A DNA stretch of 64,000 nt from an uncultured Planctomycetaceae bacterium (lineage in GTDB: Bacteria > Planctomycetota > Planctomycetia > Planctomycetales > Planctomycetaceae): the NCBI GenBank assembly GCA_963815195.1, contig CAWFGE010000008.1, forward strand, positions 256,001 through 320,000, in the 5' to 3' direction. Below, piece after piece: positions 13,482 to 31,806 of the stretch. Made by a program: the position numbers and the translations under genes. Below the pieces are notes generated by a model. That model worked only from the letters and a program-made list of their open reading frames with translations, did not search any database and was not told the DNA's origin. The number at the start of each line of letters is the position of its first letter. Within the stretch, counting starts at the first letter, position 1.

Positions 13482-16411
13482 TCAATTCAACATGCGAAAT
13501 TCGGTCGAGGCAAACAAGGTGTGGATCAACTGCGCCAGCGGGCGGGGCGAATCGGTCTTCTTGTTGGCCGACTTGGCTTCTTCCGCGGCTTTCAAGAAGG
13601 CTTCCGCGCGCGCGGCTTCCGAATCCGTGGGCGGGCGGGAGAGCACCAATTCATACGTTCGGTCGATGAGGTTTTTCGGATCATCGGTTTCCGCCGAGTT
13701 CTCCACGCGGGCCGCGGCGCGTTCGGCTTGGTCCATGACGAACGGGCTGTTTAACAGGAGCAAGCGCTTGAGCCGGGACGTTCGTCACCGACCGCCGGCC
13801 TGTGACCAGATCGGGATCGGCGAAATCGAACACCAAGAGGATCGGCGGGAGTCTCGGCCCGGATGATCGGCAGATAGGCGCTGCGATGCTCCGAGGCCTT
13901 TCGCTCGAACTTGGTTTGCTCGGATGTGTTCTGCGTGACCAGCGTGCCCAAGCCTTCCACGGGCGTGCCGCCGGGCGAAAGATCGACCGCGCCGCTGATG
14001 GCGAGCATCGCATCGCGAACAGCCTCGGCCGGGAGTCTGCGGCGGTTCGCCCGCCAGAGCAGGCGGTTCTCGGGGTCGGCGTTCCAGGCGGCAGGGTTAA
14101 GTTCGCTACTCATCCCGTACGCCCGGCTGAGCACGATCCGCCGAATGGTCTGCTTCGTCGACCAGCCGTCCGCGATGAAATCCGCCGCCAGCCGGTCGAG
14201 CAATTCGGGATGCGAAGGCCGATCGCCGAGCTTGCCGAAGTTGTCCACGCTGGGCACGATGCCCTGGCCGAAGAGATGATGCCAAATCCGGTTGACAAAA
14301 ACGCGGGCCGTCAGCGGATTGTTGGGATCGGCGATCCAATCGGCCAGTTCCTTCCGGCCGCTTTGTCCGGGCGAAAACGCCGGCAGTTCGCCCCACGTCG
14401 CCACTTGCAAAACCCCGCGGGGCACGACCTCGCCGCGATTTTGATGATCGCCCCGAACGCAAATCGCGCAGTCGGCGACCTTCGGGGCCTCGGTGACCGC
14501 AATCGCCTTGGGCAAAGGCGGCGGGGCGTTTTTTTCGAGCGTCTTGAGCTCCGCTTCCAACCGCGCTTGTTTGCCCTTCGCTTTTTCCAAAGCCGACGCG
14601 GCCTTCTTGAATTCGGGATTGTCCGCCGCAACCGCCGCATGCACCGGCTTGCCGTTTTTGTCGAGTTCCACGAGCCGGACGGCATCCGCGATCACATAGC
14701 CTTCGGTGCCGCGCGTGGAGATCGTAATCACCGCCGGCTGTTTTTCGCTAAAGGGAAACTTCCCGACGGAAGCAAACAACCCATCGATCGGCGGTTTCTT
14801 TGACTCATTCAAAGTGACTTCGACCTCGGCGTCGGCGTGCTTGATGCTCACCGGCACATTGCTCGCCCGATTGCCGCCCGTTGTGTAAGACAGCCGCACC
14901 TCGTAAGTCGCCGCGCGGGGAATCTCGATCGTATATTCAATCCACTTCTCGCCCTTCTCGGACTGGTCATCGTGCACATAGCCCGTGCCGATGAAGGAAG
15001 GCGAATACGTGGAATCCTTCCACACGCCGGTCTTCTTGGCGTCGGCATCGTCCGCCGTCAGCGAACGTTCGCCCGCCTTGAGCTTCGCCAAAGATTTCTC
15101 CAGGTTCGTCTGCTGTTTCTTCGCCTGGGCGATGGCGGACTTGAATTCCTTCTGTTTGGCCTCAAACTTTTCGACGGCGGCGAGATGCTCAGGCGAAGTC
15201 GGCAAAGTCCGGCGGGGCCAGGTGGAGACGTATTGCTGGCTTTCGCCTTTGAGGGTTTCCGTGCTTTGAAAAATGCCCGCCATCGCGTAGTAGTCGGCCG
15301 TGGGGATCGGATCGAACTTATGATCGTGGCAGCGGGCACAACCGACGGTCATCCCCAAAAACGCCTGCCCGATCGTATTGATCTGCTCGTCCACGACATC
15401 CATCGTGAGCTTCATCTTGTCCCGCTCGCTGAGCATCTTCGCCCCCATCATCAGAAACCCCGTCGCCACGACTTGGTCGGTGCGCTCGGCATCGGTTTCG
15501 CTCGAAAGCAAATCGCCCGCGATCTGCTCGCGCACGAACTGGTCGAACGGCTTGTCGCGGTTGAAGGATTCGATGACATAGTCGCGGTACTTCCAGGCGT
15601 TGTGGAAGGTCGCGTTGAAATCGCCGCCGTTGGAGTCGGCGTAGCGGGCGACATCCAGCCAATGCCGGCCCCAGTGGACGCCGAACTCCTTGGAATCGAG
15701 CAGCCGATCTACGACCCGCTCCCAAGCCCCGGGTGAGTTATCGCTGAGAAACTCCTCGACCTCGGCCGGCGAAGGCGGGAGGCCGATGAGATCGAAATAC
15801 AGCCGGCGAATCCGCGTCCGGCGGTCCGCGTCGGGGGCAGGCTTCAAGCGGGAGTGTTCTAACTTCGCCAGCACGAAAGCATCAATGTCATTAAGCGGCC
15901 AATTCTTGTCCGAGACCGCCGGCGCCTCCGCCCGCTTCACCGGCTGAAACGCCCAAAACTTTTTGCCGGCTTCGATGTCGATCGTCCGCGGGGCCGCTTT
16001 GGGTTCCGCGGCCGGCGTCTCGGTGCGGGGATCGTAGGCCCCGGTTTTGATCCACCGCTCGAAGTCGTCGATGATCTTCTTCGGCAACCGCCCGGCGGGA
16101 GGCATCTCGAAACTTTCGTAGCGGAGGGCTTCCATGAGCAGGCTTTCCTCCGGCTTGCCCGCCACCAGAGCCGGCCCCGAATCCCCGCCGTCGAGCAGAC
16201 CCGCCGCCGAGTCCACACGCAGGTTTCCTTTAATTTCCTTCGCCGTCGCGGAATGGCATTCGTAGCAATGCTTCACGAGCACCGGGCGAATCCGCGACTC
16301 GAAAAACGCCCGCTCCTTCGCATCCTCGCCCAGCGATACGCGTGTCCCCCAAAGGGCGGACACCAATGCGGCCAGCATGATCAGCGTGCAGCGAACCATA
16401 AAACGAACCAT
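13482..16411 (-). CDS. Planctomycete cytochrome c / DUF1549 / DUF1553 (PSD1) protein with inserted golvesin-like beta domain; frameshifted near 13.76-13.85 kb
   Basis: CYECH, '[10 protein letters not shown]', '[12 protein letters not shown]', '[13 protein letters not shown]', 'PSHPELLD'. The C-terminus continues in ORFs 13681-14013 and 13482-13763. Confidence 0.88.
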
Positions 16412-16710: not shown

Positions 16711-16783
16711 GGCGCCGTAGCCAAGTGGCCTAAGGCAGCGGATTGCAAATCCGCCATCGCCGGTTCAAATCCGGCCGGCGCCT
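16711..16783 (+). tRNA. tRNA-Cys(GCA)
   Basis: Cloverleaf: acceptor GGCGCCG/CGGCGCC, anticodon arm GCGGA-TTGCAAA-TCCGC, T-loop TTCAAAT. CCA is not encoded. Confidence 0.97.
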
Positions 16784-16786
16784 CTT
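16738..16786 (+). repeat. Left attachment site: 49-bp direct repeat (3' part of tRNA-Cys)
   Basis: Identical to 31758-31806 (gcggattgcaaat...ggcgcctctt). Confidence 0.96.
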
Positions 16787-18307
16787 CGGACATCAGCGGA
16801 CATTCGCGGCTCATCATCGCCCAAACCCTTAATTTTCAAAGGGTTTGGGCGATTCGCTTTTTTTGGCGTCGGATCGGGGTTTTCCCCACTTCCGGACATC
16901 TGCGGACATACGCTGCCGGGGGCTGGTCCAAGTTTTGGTCCAAGTTTTTGCGGAGCCTGCCCGTCCGTCCCGGTCGCCTGGAGGGATTCCGGGCGGTCCG
17001 ATCCGCCCGGTTTCGGAACGACGGGAACGCCCACCAGAGCCGCCGCCACGTCCCGGGCCTGCAAATGACTGTATCGGTCCATCGTGAGCTTGAATCGTCG
17101 AATGGCGGGCCAATTCCTTGGCCGTGTTGGGGTGAACCTCGGCCGTCGCGAGGGACGAAATGAAAGTGTGACGCAGGGCGTGGAAATCGAAGACGCAGCC
17201 GCGGGCGTCTTCGTACTTGAACAGGTCGGATCGTTCCCGTTGCTCCCGGACGAACGATTTCGCATCGTCGATCCAATTCGTTCGCGCGGCTTCCAGGTCG
17301 ATGCGAAGCATCTTCGCGGCGGTTCGCCACCACGAGCCGGGCCACAAGAGGGCGTCCGGGTCATCCTCCCGCCGTTTCGCAATCCAATCGGACAACCAGG
17401 CCGCGGCCTCAGGCGAAAGCGGTTGGACATCGAGCCGGCGGCGTTTCGAGTAGGCTGCAGCGACGGTGATGGTCGGGGGATTCGCGGCGAGGTTGAACGA
17501 CCTGGGCGTGAGGGACGCGAGTTCCTGCGCCCGCAGCCCCGAATAAGCGGCCGTGAAATAGAGCATCATGCGATCTTCGCCGGCGAGCCGCCGATAAACT
17601 TCCTCGGATTCCTTCGCGGCCTTGATGAGCCATTCCAATTCTTCGGGCGTCGCGGCCCGGCGTTCCCGCTTCACGTCCACGTCTTCATTCACCGGCGAGA
17701 GATGATGCGAAAAGATTCTCCGGCCAACGGCGTTCCTTGATGAGCCAGGTTCCGAAGTTCTTGATGACCTGCAAATAATCGTTGCTGGTCGCCGCGCCGA
17801 TCCGGCCGGAATCCGCGTTCATTTTTCAGCCAGTCCGCCACGCGATGCGCCTGCAGGTGTTGCAGCTTGATGAAATCGGCATCCGTCGAAAAGCCGTTGA
17901 AGGCGGTTGGCTTGCTGTTGAACATGGTCGGGGGAATTGTCTTTCGATTCGAGATGCCGGCGGAAATCCTCCACGTGTTCCGAAAGCATCCGCTCGCGAT
18001 GCTCTTCATAGGGATCCGAGTAGCCATTCTTTTCGCGGTTCGCTTTGCGGACGATCTCGCGGAGCATCTCGGCCGCTTCGTCCTTGTCCGCCGAAAGCGG
18101 CTCGCGTTGAATGACGCCATCGGCATCCCGATACTTGCCGTACCATTTTCGGGTCTTGCGTAGGCAGCGTTCGCCATCATCGGTGAGCGGGGCCGTGATC
18201 ACCCGGCCGCGGGTTCGGAAGCGGGCGAACTTCCGCCCGTCCTTCTCGACGATCTCGGCTTGTTTCGGGATGGGGGCGGGGTAGGTGTGCTGATACAGAT
18301 GGGCCAT
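16765..18307 (-). CDS. Tyrosine recombinase/integrase (split over 3-4 frames)
   Basis: 'YSGLRAQEL', 'DFHALRHTF' and 'LARHS', then after a frameshift 'LTMDRYSH'. N-terminal part 'RKWYGKYRDADG' is in ORF 17819-18385. Confidence 0.9.
16924..16948 (+). repeat. Tandem 12-mer (TGGTCCAAGTTT)x2, putative integrase arm-type site
   Basis: The same tandem occurs at 31701-31725 inside the other end of the element. Confidence 0.75.
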
Positions 18308-18405
18308 TGGATTCGATCCTTTCTGATACGCGCCGGCCACGCGGGGCGGCGGGGTATCAGTCCCGCTCGCCCCGGCAGCCGGCAAAGGTCAATAACACCA
18401 TAACA

Positions 18406-18711
18406 TCACCGATGGCCGATTTCATCTCGGATTCGCTGCTCTTCCATCGCCTGCCATTCGCTGCGGGTTGGGAGCGTTCCGTCTGGCTTTTGGGATGCCA
18501 GCCAGCGGACAATCACATCCCGAAGCCAACGCTTCGAGCGCGTGCCGATCGTCAGGGCCTTGGGGATCTTGCCTTCCGAATCCAACCGGCGGACTTGGCG
18601 TTCATCCACCCGCAATTCGCGGGCGAGTTCTTCGGCCGTCATGGTCAAAGGCGGCGGAAGTTCATCCGCAGATTGCGGCGGGGGGAACGGGATGGTTTCG
18701 GGTTTGCTCAT
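18406..18711 (-). CDS. AlpA/excisionase-like helix-turn-helix protein
   Basis: 'MTAEELARELRVDERQVRRL..GKIPKAL.IG.RSKRW'; located directly upstream of the integrase. Confidence 0.8.
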   Translation of the reverse strand: MSKPETIPFPPPQSADELPPPLTMTAEELARELRVDERQVRRLDSEGKIPKALTIGTRSKRWLRDVIVRWLASQKPDGTLPTRSEWQAMEEQRIRDEIGHR

Positions 18712-19176: not shown

Positions 19177-19213
19177 TTTTGGTTTTCCCGCGGGATTGAA
19201 CGAATAACGTCAT

Positions 19214-21147
19214 TCAGCCCGCTCGCCAGTCCTCGAAATCCAACAGCCGAAACTCCCGCCGGGGGCGTCGGCGGGTTTTCACCAACCGCCATTCCCCGCC
19301 CCGCTTCCTTTTCAGCCGGTTCAAGGCTTTCTCGGCTTCTTCGCAGGTGCGGTAGCGGCTTCGGCGGCGATGCAGTTCGCGGGGCGTGATGGATCCCCCG
19401 TTGGCTTTGATGACCAATTCCAGATCCCGAAATTCCATCAGTTCTTCATCAGCCCCGCCGGGAACCTGGAAGGCGGAATAGATACGTTTCGTTTCCCGGC
19501 CGAACCATTCCGCCAAACGGATCCCAGCCCGCAAACTCTCCAGCCCCACGGCTTCGCTCTCGGCGTTCAACGTCACGAGTTCCACCAAATGCAACAGAAG
19601 AGCCAGCCGCGCCGCATAGCTTTCCAGTTTCGACCAGGCCGAAGCCAAAGCCCCGAAAGGTCGGCTTGTTCCTCCCCGTGCCGATCCATGAATGCAATCC
19701 ATTCGGTCCGGGCGTCGGGAGTCAGCCCCACCAGCTTGGGGCGGGGCATTCCCATATCATCCCGTTCGGGTTCCAAATCCAAGAGTCCCTGATAAACGTC
19801 GGCCAATTGAGCTTGAGCGGTTTCCCCCACTTCGGCATCAATCCAGCGGCGGGGCGTGCGGGGCGGCATGGCCATCAGAAACCGGGCGGCCAATCCGTTC
19901 TGAAAATGCTCCCGTCCCAAAACGGATTTCAGGATCTCCGGCTGAATGCCCCCGGTGATCGAAACCGCGGCTCGGCTGATGTGAGTCACGGGAACGGAAG
20001 TCTTTCGATCCACGGTGATGGAATCCGTATCAAACAGCGAAAGCCATTTCGCCACATCCCCGCCGTTCCCCGAACGGTACTGATTGAAACTCTGAAACCA
20101 GCCGCTCAATTCATCGCGCTGCACCAACAGCCCTTTCGGGTTTTCCATCAACCGCACGGGCAGGGCTTCGGTTGTGGTGTCATCGATCAACAGGCGGCGG
20201 GCGGTGGGCGGGGCCGGCGAATCGGGCGGCGGTTCCCCGCGGCGGCGGCCGGCCCGCTTCCATTCCGCCAGGTCCGCATCGAATTGGGTTTTGTCTTGGG
20301 CGTGGCGCTCGAGGTCTTCATCGAATTGGGCGAACCATCGGCTTTGAATCGCCCGCAGCGGCCGCAAGGCCATCTTCATGGCGGGGGATTTGCCCGTTCC
20401 CGATTCGCCGATGGTGCAGGTCCAAATCACGGGCGGGACGATCCATTCCTCTTTAATCCGAAGCGCCGGGAGATGCCCACGCATCCGCCCAAGGCGGAAA
20501 GGATCGGCAGAGCGATGAACGCGGGATCGCAGCCGGCGGACAGGGCGGCGCGGGACGTAAACTCTCCGAGCGGTTTCGGCAGACAATCCACGGGGAACGG
20601 CTCGAACGTTCCCAGTTCGCCCAGTTTTTCGGAAGGCGGGCAGGAATCAAACAGGGCGGCGGGATCATCTTCTCCCAACCAACGCGCTTGGATTTCTTCC
20701 CAGGATTCGGCGGGGTTCATCAATGCGGCTTGCACGGTCTTCGCTCGCGCGAGCAGCCGACGGCGTTTCGCACATTCGGCCACGATGCCCGCGTAATTCC
20801 GCACGTTGGCGGTGCTTTGCGGGGCTTCCATGATTTCCGCAAGAAACAGCGCCCAGCCATCGGCGGGCGCATTCTTGGGGGGCAAGCGTTGCGCCAGAAT
20901 CACCGAATCCACGGGCAGCCCGTCGCGGTCGAGTTCCAGGGCCAAAGCGAAAATCGTTTGATGCTGGTGCGTTGTAAAAATCGCCTGGCGCAATGATTTC
21001 GCCGGCGGCTTCGATCGCTTCGGGACTGTTGAGAATGACCGAACCCAACACGGCCCGCTCCGCATCGGGATTGTTCGGGGGCAATTCAATCGACCGTTGC
21101 CGGCCGTTGTCGGGTTGATTGAAGAGACGATTTATCATCGGACTCAC
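19214..21147 (-). CDS. DnaB N-terminal-like domain fused to DUF3987 (YfjI-like) P-loop protein; putative replication protein, split over 4 frames
   Basis: 'PPNNPDAERAVLGSVIL...DFY..HQTIF' (DnaB-N); 'FEPFPVDCLP', 'GESGTGKSPA', 'RDELSGW', 'SITGGIQP', 'GLAARFL', 'KLESYAARLALLLH'. Confidence 0.82.
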
Positions 21148-21305
21148 TTCGTTGAAGTCTGGTGAGTCCCGGCAATCGTCGCGGAATCCGCGTTCCCAAA
21201 ATCGGTTCTGGTCCGTAAGATGGTGTTGCGAGATTCCGGCAAACCGCCGGGGTTCCCACGGCCGGCCCGGTCATCACGGGTTGGCCGTTCCCTTTGCGCC
21301 CATGC

Positions 21306-21333
21306 AAAAAGCCCACGGGGGATCCGTGGGCTT
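21306..21333 (-). terminator. Hairpin followed by T-tract on the minus strand
   Basis: aagcccacgg-N5-ccgtgggctt followed by a T-run on the minus strand. Confidence 0.5.
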
Positions 21334-22142: not shown

Positions 22143-23148
22143 CTAATCAGCGGATTCGTCGGGATGTGGGAGATCTGGTTTGGTTTTGGGCGGTTCGAGT
22201 TCTTCGGCCGTCGGTTGATCGGGTTCGGGGGCCTGGTCCTCATCCTCTCCCATAACGGTGTACCCACTTTCCGTTTCCGCCCGCATTAACTTATCTCTCC
22301 GCTTCGCGATCGTTTCGTTGATCTTTCCGTACTTATCGTCGGTGTCGCCCCCGATGAATGGGCGAAACAATGGGGGCGTATGCTCGTCGATGAACCGTCT
22401 TAGAAATTTCCTGAAATCGTCCTGCGATCCTGCACGGTCGCGATGCAATGTTGCCACGGTATCTTCCAATTTATCTAGGCAGTTATCCTCAGCCGCATCT
22501 ATCCAAACAAGGGGATAGGGGTTTCCGTTCAAGACGCCTTTGAGTTCTTTTCGCCCATCGCACCGAAATTCGCAGAAGTCCTTTTCCAATTCGAGTTTCT
22601 CGATGGCGTCCAGCAGCATCAAAGCCAAATCCGCGGTCAGCATGAATTTCCGGGGGGTGGCTTGACTGGCCACGCGAAAGCCCAAGTCGATGGAGGGTCC
22701 GACAAAATCCCGAAGTGATTCGTTATCGGCCGTCGAAAGGGCAAGTTCCGTGTTGGTGACGGGAAAACCAGCCAACCAACCGGAGGCTTTCAGCCGGAGG
22801 GGAACTTCCTTTTTCTGCCATTCCTTCGGATATTTGGTCACGGCGTTTTTGAACGCGGCGATATGGGTGGCCACGTGCCGATGATCCGAAAGCTTCGCTG
22901 TAAAGAGAATTTCATCCCCGGAGAATTTCCAGGGCTTCACTTCCTCGGAGCAGTCGGGCAGTTTTGAGTCCTCGAAGTCCGCGAGTTTTCCATACTCGCC
23001 ATGAAGGAAGCGTGGGAAATCTCCGAAAAATGAACGGAAGGTTTCCGCCCATTGCGTCGGATCTTCCGCGTGAGAGATTTTGTAGGCGGTGGAACCGGCA
23101 AGATCGGCGCTCAGAAACAAACGAAGCTTCCAGCCCCAGCACCATCAT
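22143..23148 (-). CDS. Stand-alone class III nucleotide cyclase-like protein
   Basis: 'SADLAGST', 'WKFSGDE', 'DFVGPSIDLGFR' and 'LKG' motifs in canonical order. The start probably overlaps the upstream stop (ATGA) with a 1-nt indel. Confidence 0.8.
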
Positions 23149-23682
23149 CCGGCAACTGCTTTGAGGGATTCATTCCTGACTCGTGCGGCATCCTCTGAGA
23201 CGTAGAACTTCACCGCAAGATCGGCAATTGACTTCCCCTGTTGCATCTCGGCCAGAAACTCGTGGCACGGCATAAGCAACTCAGCCGCAAACCAATTCGC
23301 TTCCCACTCGATTCGATTGGAGCCGGAACGAAAGGCAATTATGGGCTTTTCGCCTTGCCGAGAATGTAGGAAATAATGCCCCAACTCGTGAGCGGTAGTG
23401 AATCGGTCTCTCAAGGGACTGGTGAACGAAGGAAGGACAATATCGAACTCCGTTTCTCCATGCACGTAAATGGAGCCATCTTCGGCGAACCATTCGTCAG
23501 CCGGTTCAAAATGAATGCTGCCCCCAAGGCGCTCGACCATTTCCCCAATGGGTTCGCCCACGCGGAATGTCAACGCCTGCGCCACTTCGCGCATACTCCT
23601 CAACTCGATATTTGGGCAGATTGGAAGGGCGGATGTTTTCGCCCTCAACGTATTCCTTACCTGGTCGGCGAAAGGAGGGCAT
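23145..23682 (-). CDS. ImmA/IrrE family zinc metallopeptidase (frameshift near 23585)
   Basis: 'RDRFTTAHELGH' and 'EWEANWFAAELLMP'. The N-terminus (MPSFRRPG...) is in ORF 23506-23787. Confidence 0.9.
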
Positions 23683-23817: not shown

Positions 23818-25135
23818 CTACTTCACCGCGTAAACTTTCAGCACTTCGTCGCCGTAGTGGTTGATGACCTTCACCGCGATTTTGCCCGTGTCGGCTTGGG
23901 GAACGGTTCGCTTTTTGTGCTGTAGAGGCTGGCCCAGGCGTCTTCGTCGATTTCGGCTTTGAGGGCGCGCTTCAGGTTGGCGTAGGGTTCTTCGGCCCCC
24001 GTGAAGTAGGCGTGGCGGACGAAGAAACTCTCGGCATCGTAGTTGGTGTCGATGAACCAACACGCGATGTCATCCGTCGAATCGCTGCGGATTTGGCCCG
24101 TGGTCGGGTCGTAAACGTCGATCCCGTGGATCTCCACCACCATTTCCCCATCTTCGGTTTCGTCCAAGGTGATGTCCGGTTCGCCGAAGATCATAAACAG
24201 GTTGCCGGCCCCGGTCTTTTTGAGCAGTTCATCGCCCATGCTGAGATCGGGATTCATCCGGCAGATTTCCACTTGCAGTTTGCCGTAGGTTTTGGATTCC
24301 TCTTCCACCATCGGATCGAACGCGAACCCGCAGACCAACAGCAAATCGTTCCCGAAGCCCTGCATGGCTTCCTTGGCGGCTTCGCGGACCAAATCCGGCC
24401 CCACGGTCCCGAACTCCGGCCCGATGCACACCGCCACGGTTTTCAGGTTGCCCGATTTGTCGGTGTATTCGCCACGGGCGTGAATCCATTCGCCGGGGAA
24501 GGGTTCCAGCACATCGAACTTGAGGCGTTCGGTCTTGATGCGGTTTTGAACGCCGGCCGAACGCAGGTTTTCGATGATGGCATTGCCGAAATGATCCGGC
24601 CCCACCACCCGCATTTTCACCCCTTCATTGGCCAGCTTCGCCTTTTCCTGCACGTCGATCCGGCGGTGGGGCGAAAGGCTTTCTACGGTAAACGGCCCGG
24701 TCACGCGGAGCGTGTGCTTGTCTTCGTAGGGCTGATCGTAGAGCAATTCTTGATCGGCGTTCCGGGCGATGGATTCATCAATTTCGGCCTGGCGCTTGCG
24801 GCGGAGTTCCCACCACTTTTTGAGATGCTTTTGATCTTCGCTGCTCCAATCGCCCTCGGCTTCGCGGGGGATTTCCCATTCCTCCCAGGACTGGCCGCGC
24901 GAGGCATTCAGGCTTTCGCGGATCGGTTCCAGTTTCTTCTGCCACTTTTCGTGAATCGCATCGATTTCTTCGTTGTTGGCAATGTGCTTGAGCATGACGT
25001 GCGGCACGCGCTTATAGACAAAGCCCTTTTTGATGTCCCCATGCGTGGGATAATCCGGCGGCGTTTTGCCGGTGATCTCGGCTTCCTTCCGCACCCCTTC
25101 GGCAGAATCGGCCATCAGATACCACGGATACCGCA
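23818..25135 (-). pseudogene. C-terminal half of a type III-like site-specific DNA methyltransferase (N-terminal catalytic half missing)
   Basis: 'GFVYKRVPHV.LK.IANN', 'RVTGPFTVESLSPHR', 'WFIDTNYDAESFFVRHAYF', 'IAVKVINHYGDEV'. It begins abruptly and no DPPY or SAM-binding motif is present. Confidence 0.8.
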
Positions 25136-25287
25136 CCACACCACCCGCCTAAGCCGGCGATGGCCCCGATTACCCGGTCCACGTCATCGCCCTATGCCCC
25201 AACTGCCACCACCGCGCCCATCACGCCGACGATGCCGCGTCCTTCAATCAGGAATTGAAGGATGGGTTGAAAGAGTTGGGAAGGTGA
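25131..25287 (+). pseudogene. C-terminal fragment of an HNH endonuclease
   Basis: Manual translation gives PHHTTRL / GDGPDYPVHVIALCPNCHHRAHHADDAASFNQELK... (one frameshift). Confidence 0.75.
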
Positions 25288-25322: not shown

Positions 25323-26114
25323 TCATGTTGATGTGGAACTCCCACCTTTCTTAAACCTCACTCCAATCGATTCCATCTTTCCCTGGCTGGAATTGTGAGA
25401 AGCATCTAAGGGAAATGAAGCTTCATCAATACTTGTGGGAGTGTAGGCGGTTTCACGAACCGTCTGAGCGGAGCGATTTAGCGAGTGAAGCACATAGCCA
25501 GCAAGAGCAATTCGCCACGGTTCTTCACCTTCAATTCCCGCCTGTACCCGTCGTCGTTCGTCTTGGACGCCGTCTCCGTATGAGTTGGTGAGTGTCGCCA
25601 GATTCACTTCCGGAAACTTTGAGGGATCAAGATTAAGAAGTTGAATGTCGGCGCCCTCTTGATAGCACTCGCAGACGAATCCCACACAACTGAACTTCCG
25701 AAATCGTTTGTTGCCAGTCCGCTTGTCATTAACCCAATCGACGGGTGGATTGACGATGTAGTGCGTCAAAAACCCTTTGGGCTGTGTTGCCATTGGTGGA
25801 GTTTGAGTGTCGATTTCAGCGAGAATCGTTTGGATGCCCGCCACATCGTCGGGTGATAGATCGTCAAGAAACCCTGCAGCATGCACCTTGCACTCATCGA
25901 ACGCATGATTGGAAAAAGCACTTGCTTTCTCTCCTGCAATGATTGGCGGAGTACAATGCCAAACCGCGACAGAATGACCAAAAGCAAGATCAGAACCATC
26001 ACGTAGCAATGCCACATGAAGCACAAATTGATCCTGCTCTGGCCGGGCATACATACCCACTACTGCAAACTTCGGAACAGGTGTTGGGGCAGCCTTCAAG
26101 CGAAGTCCAGGCAT
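25323..26114 (-). CDS. Hypothetical protein, probable permuted papain-like (NlpC/P60) thiol hydrolase
   Basis: N-terminal 'HVALL' strand precedes the 'FSCVGFVCECY' helix, the His-before-Cys order of permuted members. Confidence 0.55.
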   Translation of the reverse strand: MPGLRLKAAPTPVPKFAVVGMYARPEQDQFVLHVALLRDGSDLAFGHSVAVWHCTPPIIAGEKASAFSNHAFDECKVHAAGFLDDLSPDDVAGIQTILAEIDTQTPPMATQPKGFLTHYIVNPPVDWVNDKRTGNKRFRKFSCVGFVCECYQEGADIQLLNLDPSKFPEVNLATLTNSYGDGVQDERRRVQAGIEGEEPWRIALAGYVLHSLNRSAQTVRETAYTPTSIDEASFPLDASHNSSQGKMESIGVRFKKGGSSTST

Positions 26115-26138
26115 TCGCGAAATCCCGTGTCGTGCAGG

Positions 26139-27449
26139 TCAATCTTGGTGTTCGAGTTTTCCTAACTGTTCCTTCACAAGTTTCGCAGCGGGGTGTTTCA
26201 TGACATCCGACTTTTGTGACCACGCTTCGAGCAAATTCATCAATTTGCGTTTAACCTGCCGGGTAAGCCATTTCATTTCGAGTTGTTGAATCTTCTCTAC
26301 ACACTCGTTCAAACGTGAATCTCCCAGCGCGGCCAACGCACACGTTGCGTTTTGGCCAAGGGCGGCTTTTTCACCCGCCACTAACCAATCCCGATCCAAG
26401 AACTTCACGGCCAACTCATGAATCCGATTTGAGAGATTTTCATGCTGTGTTGTATCATCCGGAGGCTGAACTTGGAATCGATGCGTCACGCAAAGCAATG
26501 TTACCAGCCGCGTTTCAATTGGCTTCGGCGGTTCAAGAAATGGCAAAAGCGTCTCGGCTTGCTCGGGGCGAATCATCGAGACATAGGTGCGAATTGCTGA
26601 TTGAACGATCGGCTTCATTTCCGTAGCGGTCGAGTGCAGAAGGGTCGAGGCAAGATCATACAGCCGTTGAGTGAGACGGTTACGAAGTTGCTCATCCGTG
26701 AACTGGACCATCTCTGCCGCCAAGATCATAGTGTTCCGCCAGCGTGCGCTAAGCCCTTCCCGTTCCAATTCATCCACGATGAAGTTGGCTACAGAATCAG
26801 GCTCCTCAAAGTGAAGTTCATTCAGGGCTTCAACACGTCTTTCAATTTCCGCGTGCGCATCTTTCACAATGGCCCAGAAATCTTCACCAGTATATATCTC
26901 TGCTTCGGTTTGGCCTTGTTGAGGATCCAGTGGAGGAGATTCTTGTAAAGACTCTTGACCGCCCCATATTGCAGCCGCTTGGTTTTTGCGTTTAATCCAA
27001 AAATTCGAGAAATTCGCGTATTGATTCCGAGGATCGTCTCTCAGATCGGATTGTGTCAAGAACCTAATATAATACCGAAGCCATGCGGTATAGCCACCAG
27101 GGCTCGACGGAACCCAAAGTGCACCAAACTCGGGCTGTTGGCTGACAAGTTTTGTTTCGGTAATGATCAGCGGGAAATTCTTTTGGGCGGATTCAATAAG
27201 AAGATCTACCAAATCTGCGTGTTCACATTCTGTGGTTGTGTAGAACTCACGATGAAAGGTTCCGGAATTGAAGACATTTTCAACAGCGGTACCTGCCGAA
27301 CTCGGTTGCTTCTCGTCCGATTCGAAGCCTTCTCTGGCTGTGGAGAGAATCCGGCGTGGAATTGGAGGATCAAGTTCATCGCAGTATGGTTTACGTGCAA
27401 CTCTGCGTGTCCGCTTCGCATAATCTACCAGAGTGGCGGTCTTGCTCAT
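26139..27449 (-). CDS. Hypothetical protein with helical (HEAT-like) C-terminal region
   Basis: Intact 436-aa ORF with an ATGA overlap to the upstream gene; amphipathic helices in the C-terminal ~240 aa. Confidence 0.6.
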   Translation of the reverse strand: MSKTATLVDYAKRTRRVARKPYCDELDPPIPRRILSTAREGFESDEKQPSSAGTAVENVFNSGTFHREFYTTTECEHADLVDLLIESAQKNFPLIITETKLVSQQPEFGALWVPSSPGGYTAWLRYYIRFLTQSDLRDDPRNQYANFSNFWIKRKNQAAAIWGGQESLQESPPLDPQQGQTEAEIYTGEDFWAIVKDAHAEIERRVEALNELHFEEPDSVANFIVDELEREGLSARWRNTMILAAEMVQFTDEQLRNRLTQRLYDLASTLLHSTATEMKPIVQSAIRTYVSMIRPEQAETLLPFLEPPKPIETRLVTLLCVTHRFQVQPPDDTTQHENLSNRIHELAVKFLDRDWLVAGEKAALGQNATCALAALGDSRLNECVEKIQQLEMKWLTRQVKRKLMNLLEAWSQKSDVMKHPAAKLVKEQLGKLEHQD

Positions 27450-28150
27450 TGTTCTGTCAATTCCCCGTAAGTCACTAAATTTGAGCCCTTCTCAATTGCT
27501 TCCCGTTTGACGACGCCAATCTTCTGCCTCGCCCGATTCATTTCGATCTGCAAATCTTCCAAATCGGAACTGTCCAAACTCACGTGCAACGTTCGGTTTT
27601 GCCCATCCCAGTATTCCAGCACCAGCGTGTTTGTTTGAAGTACAGCAAGGGTTCTGGATTGTTCCTCATTAAAGATTGGCCGAAATTCCGTCAGAATCCG
27701 GGCAGACTGAAAAAGAGTGGGGCGTTCGGAAAGAAGATCAAACGCCTTGCTAACCTGTGCGAAGAAGTTGTCCGGCTCAAAAAATGGGGAAAGATGTGGA
27801 ACAATCGCCTTCCAAGAATCCAGATGGTTTTCCCTCCATTTTTGGGGCGACTGATTGGTGAGGGTATGGTCAAGTGCTGTAAGAAATTCTGCAGCAGGCA
27901 ATTCCAGGCGGCGCCTCAATCCATTGAACGAAATCAAGGCATTGAGAATTCCGAGTTGAAGTGTGCGACGATCACATTCGAGGTCGGCGACCAAGCGATC
28001 GTAGACATTCGACAAATTCAATTCGAGTGGCTGCTGACATTGGATTCGTGCGAGTTTGGCCAAATTCTCCTCCCCCAACTCAATGAGGGCTTGAATGCCG
28101 ACAATATCTTCGTTTTGAATCGGGATTGTTTTCGGGGGAGATTCGGACAT
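27446..28150 (-). CDS. Hypothetical protein, possible prokaryotic COMMD-like protein
   Basis: Intact 234-aa ORF. Helical N-domain, then 'KAFDLL..FQSARILTEFRPIF..LVLEY..LHVSLDSSDLEDLQIEMNRARQK' (three strands plus a long helix). Confidence 0.5.
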   Translation of the reverse strand: MSESPPKTIPIQNEDIVGIQALIELGEENLAKLARIQCQQPLELNLSNVYDRLVADLECDRRTLQLGILNALISFNGLRRRLELPAAEFLTALDHTLTNQSPQKWRENHLDSWKAIVPHLSPFFEPDNFFAQVSKAFDLLSERPTLFQSARILTEFRPIFNEEQSRTLAVLQTNTLVLEYWDGQNRTLHVSLDSSDLEDLQIEMNRARQKIGVVKREAIEKGSNLVTYGELTEQ

Positions 28151-30281: not shown

Positions 30282-30717
30282 TTATGAAACAAACTCTTCT
30301 TCCCTGACATCAACATTCGATTTCAGTTCCACGCCGAAAATCTCCAAAAGCCGATTCGCACGATCGAGCGTGATGTTGTGGTACTCGTTTCGCTCATCGC
30401 GTGAGACTTGGGACTCATGGCAGCCCAACTTTTCGGCCAGTTCTTTTTGGGTGAGTCCACGAAAGATGCGCAGCCCAATGAGCAATTCGCCGATTCCGGC
30501 AAGATTGTGGAGTTCTTTAAACTCGCCCCGTTTCAGTCGTTCGTAGGAACCGATTTCTTCGCGGATTTGCTCCATGAAAGAACGGACGGGTTCGAGGGCG
30601 CGTTCCACTTCTTCGGGCGAGAGAGTTTCGCCAAGCTTCTCACTTCCTTTTCAATCGCTCTGTTTCGGCTTTCAAACGGCGGTTTGCTTCCTGATATTCT
30701 GATTCACTGCGAATCAT
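30282..30717 (-). CDS. XRE-family HTH regulator/antitoxin-like protein (frameshift near 30640)
   Basis: 'MIRSESEYQEA' N-terminus; 'LRIFRGLTQKELAEKLGCHESQVSRDE'. Confidence 0.82.
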
Positions 30718-30722
30718 GTGAT

Positions 30723-31280
30723 TTACTCCACAATTTTGACAATGCCCCGCGGCGTATGGTCGCGGGCTTGTCGGAATGCTGAAGGGAAAGTGAGTTCGTG
30801 GCCGTGTTCGTCCCGGAATGCCAGCATGATTGACCATAATGGGGATAAAGTTCCACGCGGTATCGATGCCACATCGGGAGTTGCCGTTTCGAGGAATCCG
30901 GGTGAGGCCTTCGGCTTTTCCGGATCCCAAGTCCAAACTTTATGCGGATCAAGCAAGTTCAATTGGCGTTGAAGTTCACCGCTCGCCAATTCGTGCAGGT
31001 CACATTCAAAATAACCATCAATGTCGTTCGGATGGTCCTTATCTTCCACAAATGACCCATCAATGAAGATCTCAGTGATTCCGACGGTGCGGAGTTGGTC
31101 CACGAGCGTTGCAAGGTTGAAACAGAGCTTTTCCCGCCAGCCCAATCCCAGTTTGGCGAGCTTGGATTTCCTAAAACGAGATGAGACGCGGCCAATTCGG
31201 ATTCTGTGAGTTCGTAGTCGCCCGGAGGGAGAAAGCCATCGGAATTGAAGGGTGGAAGATATTGTTGTTTTCATCGGCAC
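30723..31280 (-). CDS. DUF6932-like nucleotidyltransferase-fold protein (multiple frameshifts)
   Basis: 'LPPFNSDGFLPPGDY' (alternative frame) and 'IFIDGSFVEDKDHPNDID' (GS...DxD). Confidence 0.7.
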   Translation of the reverse strand: MPMKTTISSTLQFRWLSPSGRLRTHRIRIGRVSSRFRKSKLAKLGLGWREKLCFNLATLVDQLRTVGITEIFIDGSFVEDKDHPNDIDGYFECDLHELASGELQRQLNLLDPHKVWTWDPEKPKASPGFLETATPDVASIPRGTLSPLWSIMLAFRDEHGHELTFPSAFRQARDHTPRGIVKIVE

Positions 31281-31321: not shown

Positions 31322-31700
31322 ATTTTATGCAAGGTGGTTCCAGCACCGCCGGGTTCAAAACCAAAACTTTTGATTCAAAACCCTTCAAAAAATGTGCGCG
31401 GCTGCCGTGCGGTATCCGGGCCAAAAGCCCTCAGCGATTTTGCCACCCCCCCCGGTCGAACCGTGGGCCAGAATGCCGGCCCGCCGTTGAAACAAACTCT
31501 CTCTTTCATGCCGGGTCTTTACCACGCCCCGCCGATCACACCGATGTTGGGGAAGAACCTAGGCGGCGACATCAGGTCGGCTTCGCCGATGCTTCGATCA
31601 TCGCCAGGATCCCCGCTTTGATGGCATCGGGCAGCGTGGGCCATGACTTCGATGACGCGGGAGAGTTCCGGACATTCGCGGCCATGCGATGACGGCAGGT

Positions 31701-31725
31701 TGGTCCAAGTTTTGGTCCAAGTTTT
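31701..31725 (+). repeat. Tandem 12-mer (TGGTCCAAGTTT)x2, putative arm-type site
   Basis: Matches 16924-16948. Confidence 0.75.
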
Positions 31726-31757
31726 CGCCCAGATCCCTTGTTTTTAAGGGTCCGCTC

Positions 31758-31806
31758 GCGGATTGCAAATCCGCCATCGCCGGTTCAAATCCGGCCGGCG
31801 CCTCTT
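31758..31806 (+). repeat. Right attachment site: duplicated 3' part of tRNA-Cys
   Basis: Identical to 16738-16786; lacks the tRNA 5' half. Confidence 0.96.

Follow-up and report, generated by a model that had tools for sequence, protein, structure and literature searches.

Pycsar systems are built around a stand-alone class III nucleotide cyclase on mobile or defense DNA, with a pyrimidine nucleotide as substrate (GTP in Pucsar) and PycTM or PycTIR as effector. RosmerTA and the NetFlax ImmA (D25) hub combine an M78 zinc peptidase with a partner of unknown function in a two-gene arrangement, in prophages and defense islands, a layout that the pair described here shares. In this study we analyzed a stretch of 64,000 nucleotides from an uncultured Planctomycetaceae bacterium (assembly GCA_963815195.1, contig CAWFGE010000008.1, positions 256,001 to 320,000; hereafter the window, meaning the whole stretch), in which an M78 peptidase gene is followed on the minus strand by a 333-codon cyclase frame (window positions 22143-23682). 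The original prediction, made from the sequence alone, described a HExxH peptidase abutting a cyclase with its motifs in a set order, and all of this was confirmed on the minus strand. The pair is an unnamed two-gene cassette that is real, widespread, mobile and conserved; its parts are known, and their combination is undescribed and uncatalogued.

The pairing is evident from both sides. Among the best 80 of 120 GTDB loci, the peptidase gene lies directly upstream of the cyclase in 77, one of the three misses being a contig end, and the same holds for 27 of 28 viral loci (the single miss is a contig end); the conserved two-gene module that had been predicted is borne out by this survey. Four of five further Planctomycetota loci are also paired, as are 18 of 25 strong Pseudomonadota loci (two at contig ends), some of whose genomes overlap the GTDB set. 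From the peptidase side, a profile made from cyclase-linked peptidases was applied to the best 80 of 467 metagenome hits and the best 80 of 414 viral hits. A cyclase follows in 49 of 51 evaluable loci at 140 bits or more, in 3 of 5 between 110 and 140 bits and in 1 of 90 below 110 bits. This peptidase subfamily is almost exclusive to the cyclase partner. With all loci pooled at 90% identity, peptidase-first loci included, 139 of 149 clusters have the peptidase, three stop at a contig end and seven lack it. The nearest cyclase start lies -26 to +24 bases from the peptidase stop in 56 of the 61 loci with an assignable start, a count that is biased because the nearest start was chosen. Peptidase and cyclase distances correlate (rho 0.32, with 0/999 permutations as high; the nearest neighbor agrees in 57/75), which would fit shared descent and is no proof of binding.

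Each gene also occurs alone. Six cyclases have no upstream peptidase despite room for it: L002, L336, L337 (broken), L338, L341 and L344 (truncated). L002 keeps a 21-residue peptidase remnant, with no other copy in its genome, and a cognate peptidase was not found in the five other genomes, which are incomplete (best match 66 bits). Some of the solo cyclases other than the broken and truncated ones carry single motif changes. Solo peptidases are found at L144, L198 and L199. L004, one of the seven clusters counted above as lacking the peptidase, was ruled out as a solo cyclase, its peptidase being located ~64 kb upstream, separated at the junction. At L382/L383 (G004:C1 738014 and ~802200), ~64 kb split the pair exactly at the junction, both genes being 85-94% identical to the L007 pair.

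The cyclase family is patchy (5/401 Planctomycetota genomes, 0/20 genomes of the host family and 25 strong loci in 401 Pseudomonadota), and its tree, made by a quick method, roughly tracks phyla. The pair is found on seven plasmids and on phage LE1, in which Orf2/Orf1 (AAG16685.1/AAG16684.1) are the same pair, with the parA region on one side and a CI gene on the other. Prophage cargo sites hold it beside repressor, integrase or lysis genes. Mobile and defense-rich settings, which support the original interpretation, are seen in the element between attachment sites, in neighboring restriction-modification (R-M) genes and in the prophage sites.

The cyclase is uncatalogued, as predicted. The protein from the window has no Pfam, NCBIfam or PADLOC match, RosmerTA and Pycsar models included, a Pfam cyclase match is found in 0/75 aligned relatives, and a PDB sequence search with the protein or its profile gave nothing. 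It does fall in PHROG 18024 (E 4.4e-32), a group of unknown function; neither this entry nor those of the LE1 pair name a function, a cyclase fold or a pairing. A word-indexed search gave 179 relatives, and 1,567 clusters were obtained at 50% identity (E<=0.001). The AlphaFold model (predicted local distance difference test, pLDDT, 90.9; predicted template modeling score, pTM, 0.85) has adenylyl and guanylyl cyclases as its best structural matches. Foldseek gives E 1.1e-9 to CyaC and CyaB, and VIA gives Z 15.9 to CyaB (3r5g; root-mean-square deviation 2.8, 184 residues aligned) and 15.0 to CyaC. The model is closer to these two than to PycC structures (Z 11.8-12.6), GGDEF proteins reach 9.0, and mCpol of Panoptes (9mnr) stays at 7.5, far under the class III cyclases; Panoptes, an inhibitory signaling system that joins mCpol to a 2TM-beta effector, also differs in that most cassette loci have no conserved membrane effector. 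Class 3 cyclase clusters are also what the ESM Atlas indicates. An hhalign profile alignment against 22 domains of canonical cyclases (probability 95.5, E 1.5e-8) agrees with the fold match, and both sustain the predicted class III cyclase with Lys and Asp at the purine-specifying positions.

In this alignment, with residues counted from base 23144 on the minus strand, D14 (in SADLAGST, base 23105) and D77 (in KFSGD, 22916) correspond to the metal Asp residues, K73 (22928) to the base-specifying Lys, D153 and R157 (22688/22676) to the N-x3-R pair and K202 of LKG (22541) to the pyrophosphate Lys. D146 (in DFVG, 22709) stands three residues before Gly, at the base-specifying position, as in the D-Y-F-G-x3-N motif of short-arm cyclases. 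The catalytic roles given here to these residues (metal, base, pyrophosphate) are those we take over from the cyclase literature. Lys and Asp at the base-specifying positions go with a preference for adenine, and Lys73/Asp146 therefore suggest an adenine substrate. D14, K73, D77, E78, D146, D153 and R157 occur in 75/75 locus-derived alignment rows and in 113-120 of 120 rows of an independent set. D153 is found in 75/75 and 120/120, so that every member has Asp in place of the catalytic Asn. The K202 position is Lys or Arg in 70/75, and K119 (base 22790) is present in 120/120 of the independent rows; in the 75-row set K119, W123 and AGFP belonged to the scan pattern, which accounts for part of their invariance. 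The second metal Asp is followed by an invariant Glu, E78 (G-D-E), and Glu at this place is a feature of GGDEF enzymes. Of the class III hallmarks, the fold, the two metal Asp and the basic pyrophosphate residues are present, whereas D-x3-R stands in place of N-x3-R. On the model, the protein is a predicted class III nucleotide cyclase, and a very divergent one. The class IIIc adenylyl cyclases (Rv1264/Rv1900c type), whose motif we take as the comparison, and CyaB/CyaC share the fold and the residue layout, D-F-V-G-x3-D-x3-R being parallel to D-Y-F-G-x3-N-x3-R of L288/L290; the cassette cyclase differs by Asp for Asn, the invariant G-D-E and W-x-A-G-F-P, extra C-terminal helices and the lack of a sensor domain.

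Behind the core, three conserved helices are predicted (222-234, 241-254 and 277-292, with a low-confidence loop at 231-240), and P262 in this region is kept in 73/75 relatives. Folded alone (pLDDT 83, pTM 0.57), the extension has no structural match above Z 2.5. It is a candidate regulatory or cleavage region. The acidic, Pro-rich tail behind it, originally proposed as the cleavage target, does not qualify: top-residue conservation is 0.11-0.24, and the last 45 residues are acidic in 40/75 relatives and neutral or basic in 19/75. Natural fusions exist, namely an in-frame peptidase-cyclase fusion (L049, 545 amino acids, aa) and a cyclase-NUDIX fusion (L107, 481 aa). Forms of 756-2155 aa were not found in the family, which is weak evidence, as both fusions fall below that range. 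Two sphingomonad cyclases (L035:5986-7233 and L057:5986-7236) carry at the C-terminus a PcrA/UvrD tudor domain (PF21196, best 3.5e-5), an RNA-polymerase-binding module, and the L057 gene is inserted between nusG and rplK. L347-L350 are conserved stand-alone class III cyclases (~300 aa) of Pseudomonadota that also have D-x3-R for N-x3-R and no peptidase; this canonical-looking family is a possible bridge to canonical cyclases.

The peptidase matches PF06114 (Peptidase_M78, E 1.6e-20) and the PADLOC models capP (3.9e-24) and RmrA (1.9e-16), and profile comparison relates it to CapP (7t5t, 2e-16) and IrrE (3dte, 3.5e-7). It is ~175-180 aa long and consists of the peptidase domain and a CapP/IrrE-like helix-turn-helix (HTH) linker, with neither a GAF domain nor a recognizable ligand-binding domain. 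HE-x-GH is present in 75/77 upstream open reading frames (ORFs), the remaining two being cut or broken. The 75-row peptidase alignment was filtered on this motif (L049, L054 and L077 were left out); in it the third zinc ligand Glu, which was no filter criterion, is found in 75/75 and an Arg equivalent to CapP R90 in 68/75, and the protein ends 4-13 residues past a conserved HTH Arg in 70/75. Together with the invariant cyclase residues, this pattern suggests that both active sites are under selection. CapP/CapH, IrrE/DdrO and ImmA/ImmR thus share with the cassette the peptidase family, HExxH, the third Glu, the HTH linker and the Arg that contacts single-stranded DNA (ssDNA), whereas the cassette has no GAF, no conserved XRE repressor and an enzyme as its constant partner. 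R90 is an ssDNA contact of CapP, and both CapP and IrrE hold ssDNA between peptidase and GAF (PMC13228613). ImmA likewise has no GAF (PMC6868357) and responds via RecA or RapI (10.1101/2022.04.27.489752).

Other short M78 peptidases, sisters of the cassette peptidase, precede a small protein whose C-terminal part has membrane helices (L215, L218-L220, L227, L229, L235, L241, L253, L254, L256 and L181). This unit is recurrent and uncatalogued, six tested cases (L215, L253, L218, L220, L229 and L181) have no PADLOC match, and it is possibly RosmerTA-like. Further M78 genes precede genes for beta-protein, DarT, SIR2-like and metallophosphoesterase-like proteins (L214, L160, L180, L182; L186; L230, L247; L151, L154, L164).

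ORF clustering of 80 loci revealed no third conserved gene. No XRE cluster was found among the ORF clusters common to at least three of these loci, although XRE/CI neighbors occur occasionally in prophages. In the window, the absence of an XRE partner beside the pair holds as predicted, the nearest XRE gene (30282-30608, ~6.6 kb away, next to a DUF6932 gene) being rejected as partner since it is not conserved; the peptidase has its HTH-like linker nonetheless. The flanks are mixed, with housekeeping operons, R-M genes and other defense genes. R-M genes lie within 6 kb in 12/80 loci, a count with no background rate for comparison, and RosmerTA, CapP, PARIS-like and FRG neighbors are found in a hand-picked locus set.

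Neighbor scans at E 1e-12 and 1e-10 covered 127/130 and 146/149 ORFs, six long ORFs having been left out for size. PycTM genes are absent from these scans and were revealed by a genome search and a purpose-built profile. Among 50 host genomes (that of the window and 49 of the 80), nine have PycTM and eight have a PycTIR/Cap12 TIR domain, and 3 of the 11 PycTM (PF18967) matches adjoin the pair. An orphan PycTM-type gene adjoins it in 5 of the 110 clusters with both flanks, in four lineages: upstream on the same strand in L034 and L050, downstream and convergent in L029, downstream and overlapping in L208, and upstream in L107. In L197, such a gene stands beside the peptidase at a contig end. 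The adjoining proteins match PADLOC PycTM (1e-16 to 1e-26) and CBASS 2TM effector models, no PycC is found near the five pairs, and the loci are scattered on the cyclase tree (four changes); the PycTM gene tree has no resolution. The best evidence on the output is this presence of orphan PycTM-type receptors by the cyclase in four lineages, from which the cyclase likely makes a diffusible nucleotide signal. Shared hotspots could explain part of the adjacency. The claim that no receptor is visible thus stands for the window and for ~95% of the loci, and fails at these five clusters. The prophage locus L107 (3328-8148) has the order XRE, PycTM-type gene, peptidase, cyclase-NUDIX fusion, second ordinary ImmA, integrase. 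At L183 (331-3453), a canonical Pycsar (PycC 8.4e-138 and a PycTM-like gene) lies ~1 kb from an unrelated M78 peptidase gene.

The cassette is thus like Pycsar in its stand-alone class III cyclase on mobile or defense DNA and, at five loci, in its PycTM-family neighbor. It differs from Pycsar and Pucsar in the adenine-type Lys/Asp and D-x3-R, in the lack of an effector at ~95% of its loci and in its constant M78 partner. No PycTM or PycTIR gene that would make it a Pycsar member adjoins the pair in the window or occurs in its genome. The cassette cyclase matches 0 PADLOC families at E<=0.1, compared with 1e-102 and 1e-138 for true PycC controls, in a library that comes without clade F and Pucsar. 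Clade F of Pycsar has PycTM (PMC13069673). The available Pucsar text describes five subclades related to Pycsar, and an M78 partner appears in none of them (10.64898/2026.08.12.744502).

The reading that we favor, and consider quite possible, is that the cassette is a protease-gated class III cyclase, probably of anti-phage defense. A cue of DNA damage or infection would switch the peptidase on, as for ImmA, IrrE and CapP, by a trigger that may be ImmA-like and not the ssDNA groove of CapP (GAF being absent). The peptidase would then cut or bind the cyclase, most plausibly in the C-terminal helical extension, and free a latent enzyme, the dimer of which would convert ATP (via Lys73/Asp146) to cAMP or a related adenine nucleotide. 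At ~5% of the loci this product would open the adjacent PycTM-type protein, as in Pycsar. At the others, the window included, either the burst itself (ATP drain or a flood of nucleotide reaching binders of the host) or a receptor encoded elsewhere would arrest growth. That each gene occurs alone agrees better with latent parts than with a toxin kept in check by an antitoxin. Protease-activated zymogen effectors (modules with MBL, alpha/beta-hydrolase, Pepco or EACC1; 10.1101/2025.11.14.688446) and protease-activated CBASS CD-NTases (PMC12991175) are precedents for the proposed logic, in which proteolysis releases a latent effector or signal enzyme. Trypsin-, caspase- and subtilisin-like or phage proteases act there, in contrast to M78 here, and the words cyclase, M78, ImmA and IrrE have 0 occurrences in the main text of 10.1101/2025.11.14.688446. 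Protease-effector linkage across distant genomes, by which the zymogen modules are recognized, is also seen for the cassette.

Several observations weigh against a protease-gated cyclase. No receptor is encoded in cis in 105/110 clusters, and PycTM and the PycTIR TIR domain are both absent in 35/50 host genomes, that of the window included, and for this reason the usual output is unexplained. With Asp instead of the catalytic Asn and with the additional invariant Glu, the chemistry or the product may differ from that of known cyclases. The missing GAF domain removes half of the CapP/IrrE ssDNA groove, many insertions lie among housekeeping genes, and solo cyclases that are silent may look the same as latent ones. 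The M78 substrates described in the available text are XRE repressors (PMC6868357), and M78 proteins of the RmrA type act as antitoxins and not as activators (PMC10440598, 10.1101/2022.05.11.491447).

In the strongest alternative, which we regard as unlikely, the pair would be a RosmerTA-like toxin-antitoxin system, in which the peptidase neutralizes a constitutive cyclase-fold toxin by cutting or binding it until phage infection removes the peptidase. The peptidase-first order, the tight junctions and the 105/110 clusters with no cis receptor all fit, many different toxins are paired with ImmA-type proteases as their antitoxin hub (PMC10440598), deletion of rmrA was not achieved (10.1101/2022.05.11.491447), and sister M78 genes are found ahead of genes for DarT, SIR2, beta-protein and small membrane proteins. 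Against this stand the six cyclase clusters with no upstream peptidase, one of which has a remnant only (L002) and five of which lie in genomes where no cognate peptidase was found, and they weaken the toxin-antitoxin version of the original prediction. The repeated orphan PycTM adjacency also speaks for signaling. RmrA has an N-terminal XRE HTH (models of 357-400 positions) that is absent here, the window peptidase matching only positions ~165-300, and the validated RmrT is a membrane toxin (PMC10440598). No PADLOC RmrT model matches the cassette cyclase, compared with 2.3e-43 for the true RmrT in L066. The NetFlax searches included the carriers phage LE1 and Robiginitomaculum antarcticum and predicted 0 toxin-antitoxin pairs in each, in the accessible part of the data (PMC10440598).

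It is quite unlikely that the order is reversed, with the cyclase as sensor and its product activating a peptidase effector, the targets of which would be XRE repressors of the host or a prophage, or some other essential protein. Such a scheme would account for the absent third gene and agrees with the cleavage of XRE repressors by M78 enzymes, with the CI/XRE gene beside the pair in several prophages (L097, L098, L103, L107 and LE1) and with the existence of protease effectors downstream of nucleotide signals (type IV Thoeris). However, the peptidase has no recognizable ligand-binding domain, no XRE gene beside the pair is conserved, L107 has a separate ordinary ImmA next to the integrase, and the orphan PycTM genes hint at a different receptor. 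Least probable of all is a non-defense role as a stress-triggered cAMP source by which prophages or islands adjust CRP-type regulation of the host or steer their own life cycle, for although the adenine-type specificity residues, the location in prophage immunity regions, the cyclic-nucleotide signaling of the host (to judge from its 16 canonical class III cyclase matches) and the many chromosomal insertions among housekeeping genes would suit it, the patchy distribution, the R-M and other defense neighbors and the PycTM adjacency do not.

A description of the M78-cyclase pair was not found in the literature searched, which was mostly open-access; Pucsar Table S1, other supplements or the rest of NetFlax Dataset S1 could list the family. 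The excerpts of PMC11224242, 10.1101/2022.05.11.491447, PMC12657230 and 10.1101/2025.09.30.679545 contain no such pair. A temperate phage of L. biflexa is among the carriers of COG2856 in PMC2701414 (Makarova 2009), the available part of which mentions no cyclase link.

The features of the window are given in Table 1. As assembled, both genes of its copy are frameshifted, and the copy may be inactive. Searches (tblastn) with the L001, L003 and L008 peptidases match the frame of ATG 23682 and then the next frame downstream, agreement with the N-termini of relatives in the first frame extending only to ~23590. In close relatives the cyclase begins 8-17 bases ahead of the peptidase stop, in the frame of TTG 23155, and some of these proteins begin with M-P-D; as assembled, this TTG and the cyclase body are in different frames. 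The body continues in frame from the TGA of the peptidase, its conserved W-x-W-K-L-R-L strand having no start codon ahead of it, and the database gene call starts at TTG 23120 (325 aa). At the junction the window has 14 bases more than L001, L008 and L002, a one-base offset from their frame relation. Stop-codon readthrough as a family feature was ruled out because the frame relation varies among relatives. A promoter scan gave no sigma-70-like site, and terminators were at chance level.

Table 1. Features of the window around the peptidase-cyclase pair and its element.
Feature	Positions	Strand	Evidence
Left attachment repeat, overlapping the tRNA-Cys 3' end (tRNA 16711-16784, ARAGORN)	16738..16786	+	49-bp 100% repeat, spacing 15,020
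Tyrosine integrase (in pieces) and excisionase-like HTH_17 gene	16829..18711	-	Pfam Phage_integrase 1.7e-11, HTH_17 1.2e-6; frame changes
Variable low-confidence cyclase tail and stop codon	22143..22268	-	pLDDT 51-72
C-terminal helical extension, residues ~222-292, P-F motif, family-specific	22269..22481	-	AlphaFold helices, conservation; putative role
Predicted class III cyclase core, residues 1-221 (D14, K73, D77, E78, K119, D146, D153, R157, K202)	22482..23144	-	AlphaFold, Foldseek, VIA, hhalign, conservation
Probable true cyclase start region, TTG at 23155 overlapping the peptidase stop	23145..23155	-	inferred
M78 peptidase main part, HELGH 23390-23376, third zinc ligand Glu 23309, HTH-like linker, no GAF	23145..23591	-	PF06114
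M78 peptidase N-terminal piece, ATG at 23682	23590..23682	-	tblastn with L001, L003, L008 peptidases, 45-59% identity
Type III methyltransferase C-terminal half, directly upstream of the pair	23818..25139	-	PADLOC MTase_III 1.4e-134, profile 532-962 of 983
Right attachment repeat	31758..31806	+	49-bp repeat

The pair sits in a 15,020-bp element that is integrated at tRNA-Cys between the two perfect 49-bp direct repeats and has a GC content of 0.49-0.55 over most of its length vs ~0.60-0.62 outside. Besides the split integrase, DnaB-DUF3987 and an HTH/DUF6932 pair are encoded in it, and a type III R-M system is present as halves. The methyltransferase gene, the end of which runs on in another frame, is defense context and no conserved partner of the pair. 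The element is rich in frameshifts, with four in the DnaB-DUF3987 gene and more in the integrase and methyltransferase. Since host genes outside the element are frameshifted too (four shifts per 47 genes over 52 kb; also the PSD1 gene at 13482-16411 and the stretch 43459-44691/42306-43562), the assembly carries indel errors. All breaks that could be placed are frameshifts, which are probably consensus errors of the assembly, decay being the alternative; a read-derived contig spans 22220-22645 only, outside both frameshifts of the pair. The host genome (94.6% complete) has one copy each of the peptidase and cyclase genes and no second M78 match to the peptidase profile.

Three ORFs at 25323-28150 on the minus strand (263, 436 and 234 aa; GC ~0.49-0.51) have no clear Pfam, PADLOC, PHROG or NCBIfam match and separate the N-terminal half of the type III Res from the C-terminal half of the Mod, as if they had replaced the middle of the R-M operon. 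The DUF6932 gene (PADLOC PDC-M63A, 1.2e-10) and the following XRE HTH gene (30282-31280, minus strand) are a candidate toxin-antitoxin or defense pair. Two shorter repeats (30 nt, 80%; 31 nt, 94%) link 16784-16951 at the integrase end with 31666-31728 at the right end. A related element lies in the same genome (G000 contig C7, ~92000-106000), its DnaB-DUF3987 protein being up to 90% identical to that at 19177-21332 of the window.

Taken more broadly than a protease-gated cyclase, and on the doubtful side, the cassette may represent an ancient widespread immune module, in which an M78 protease of the cell processes a cyclase zymogen, the altered site (G-D-E, D-x3-R) yields a non-Pycsar adenine signal or receptor-free killing, and PycTM pores were recruited at least four times as optional outputs. 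The M78-cyclase unit spans ~150 sequence clusters in more than ten phyla and is invisible to the copies of Pfam, NCBIfam and PADLOC used. Its natural two-gene, three-gene, fused and solo forms are built-in controls, and a temperate phage in culture, LE1, is among the carriers. The available text of PMC11224242 leaves open what activates Pycsar-type cyclases, and the M78-cyclase unit would offer a directly testable activation mechanism. It would also provide a new class of M78 substrates, and it could add either a new nucleotide messenger or a cyclase toxin that needs no receptor.

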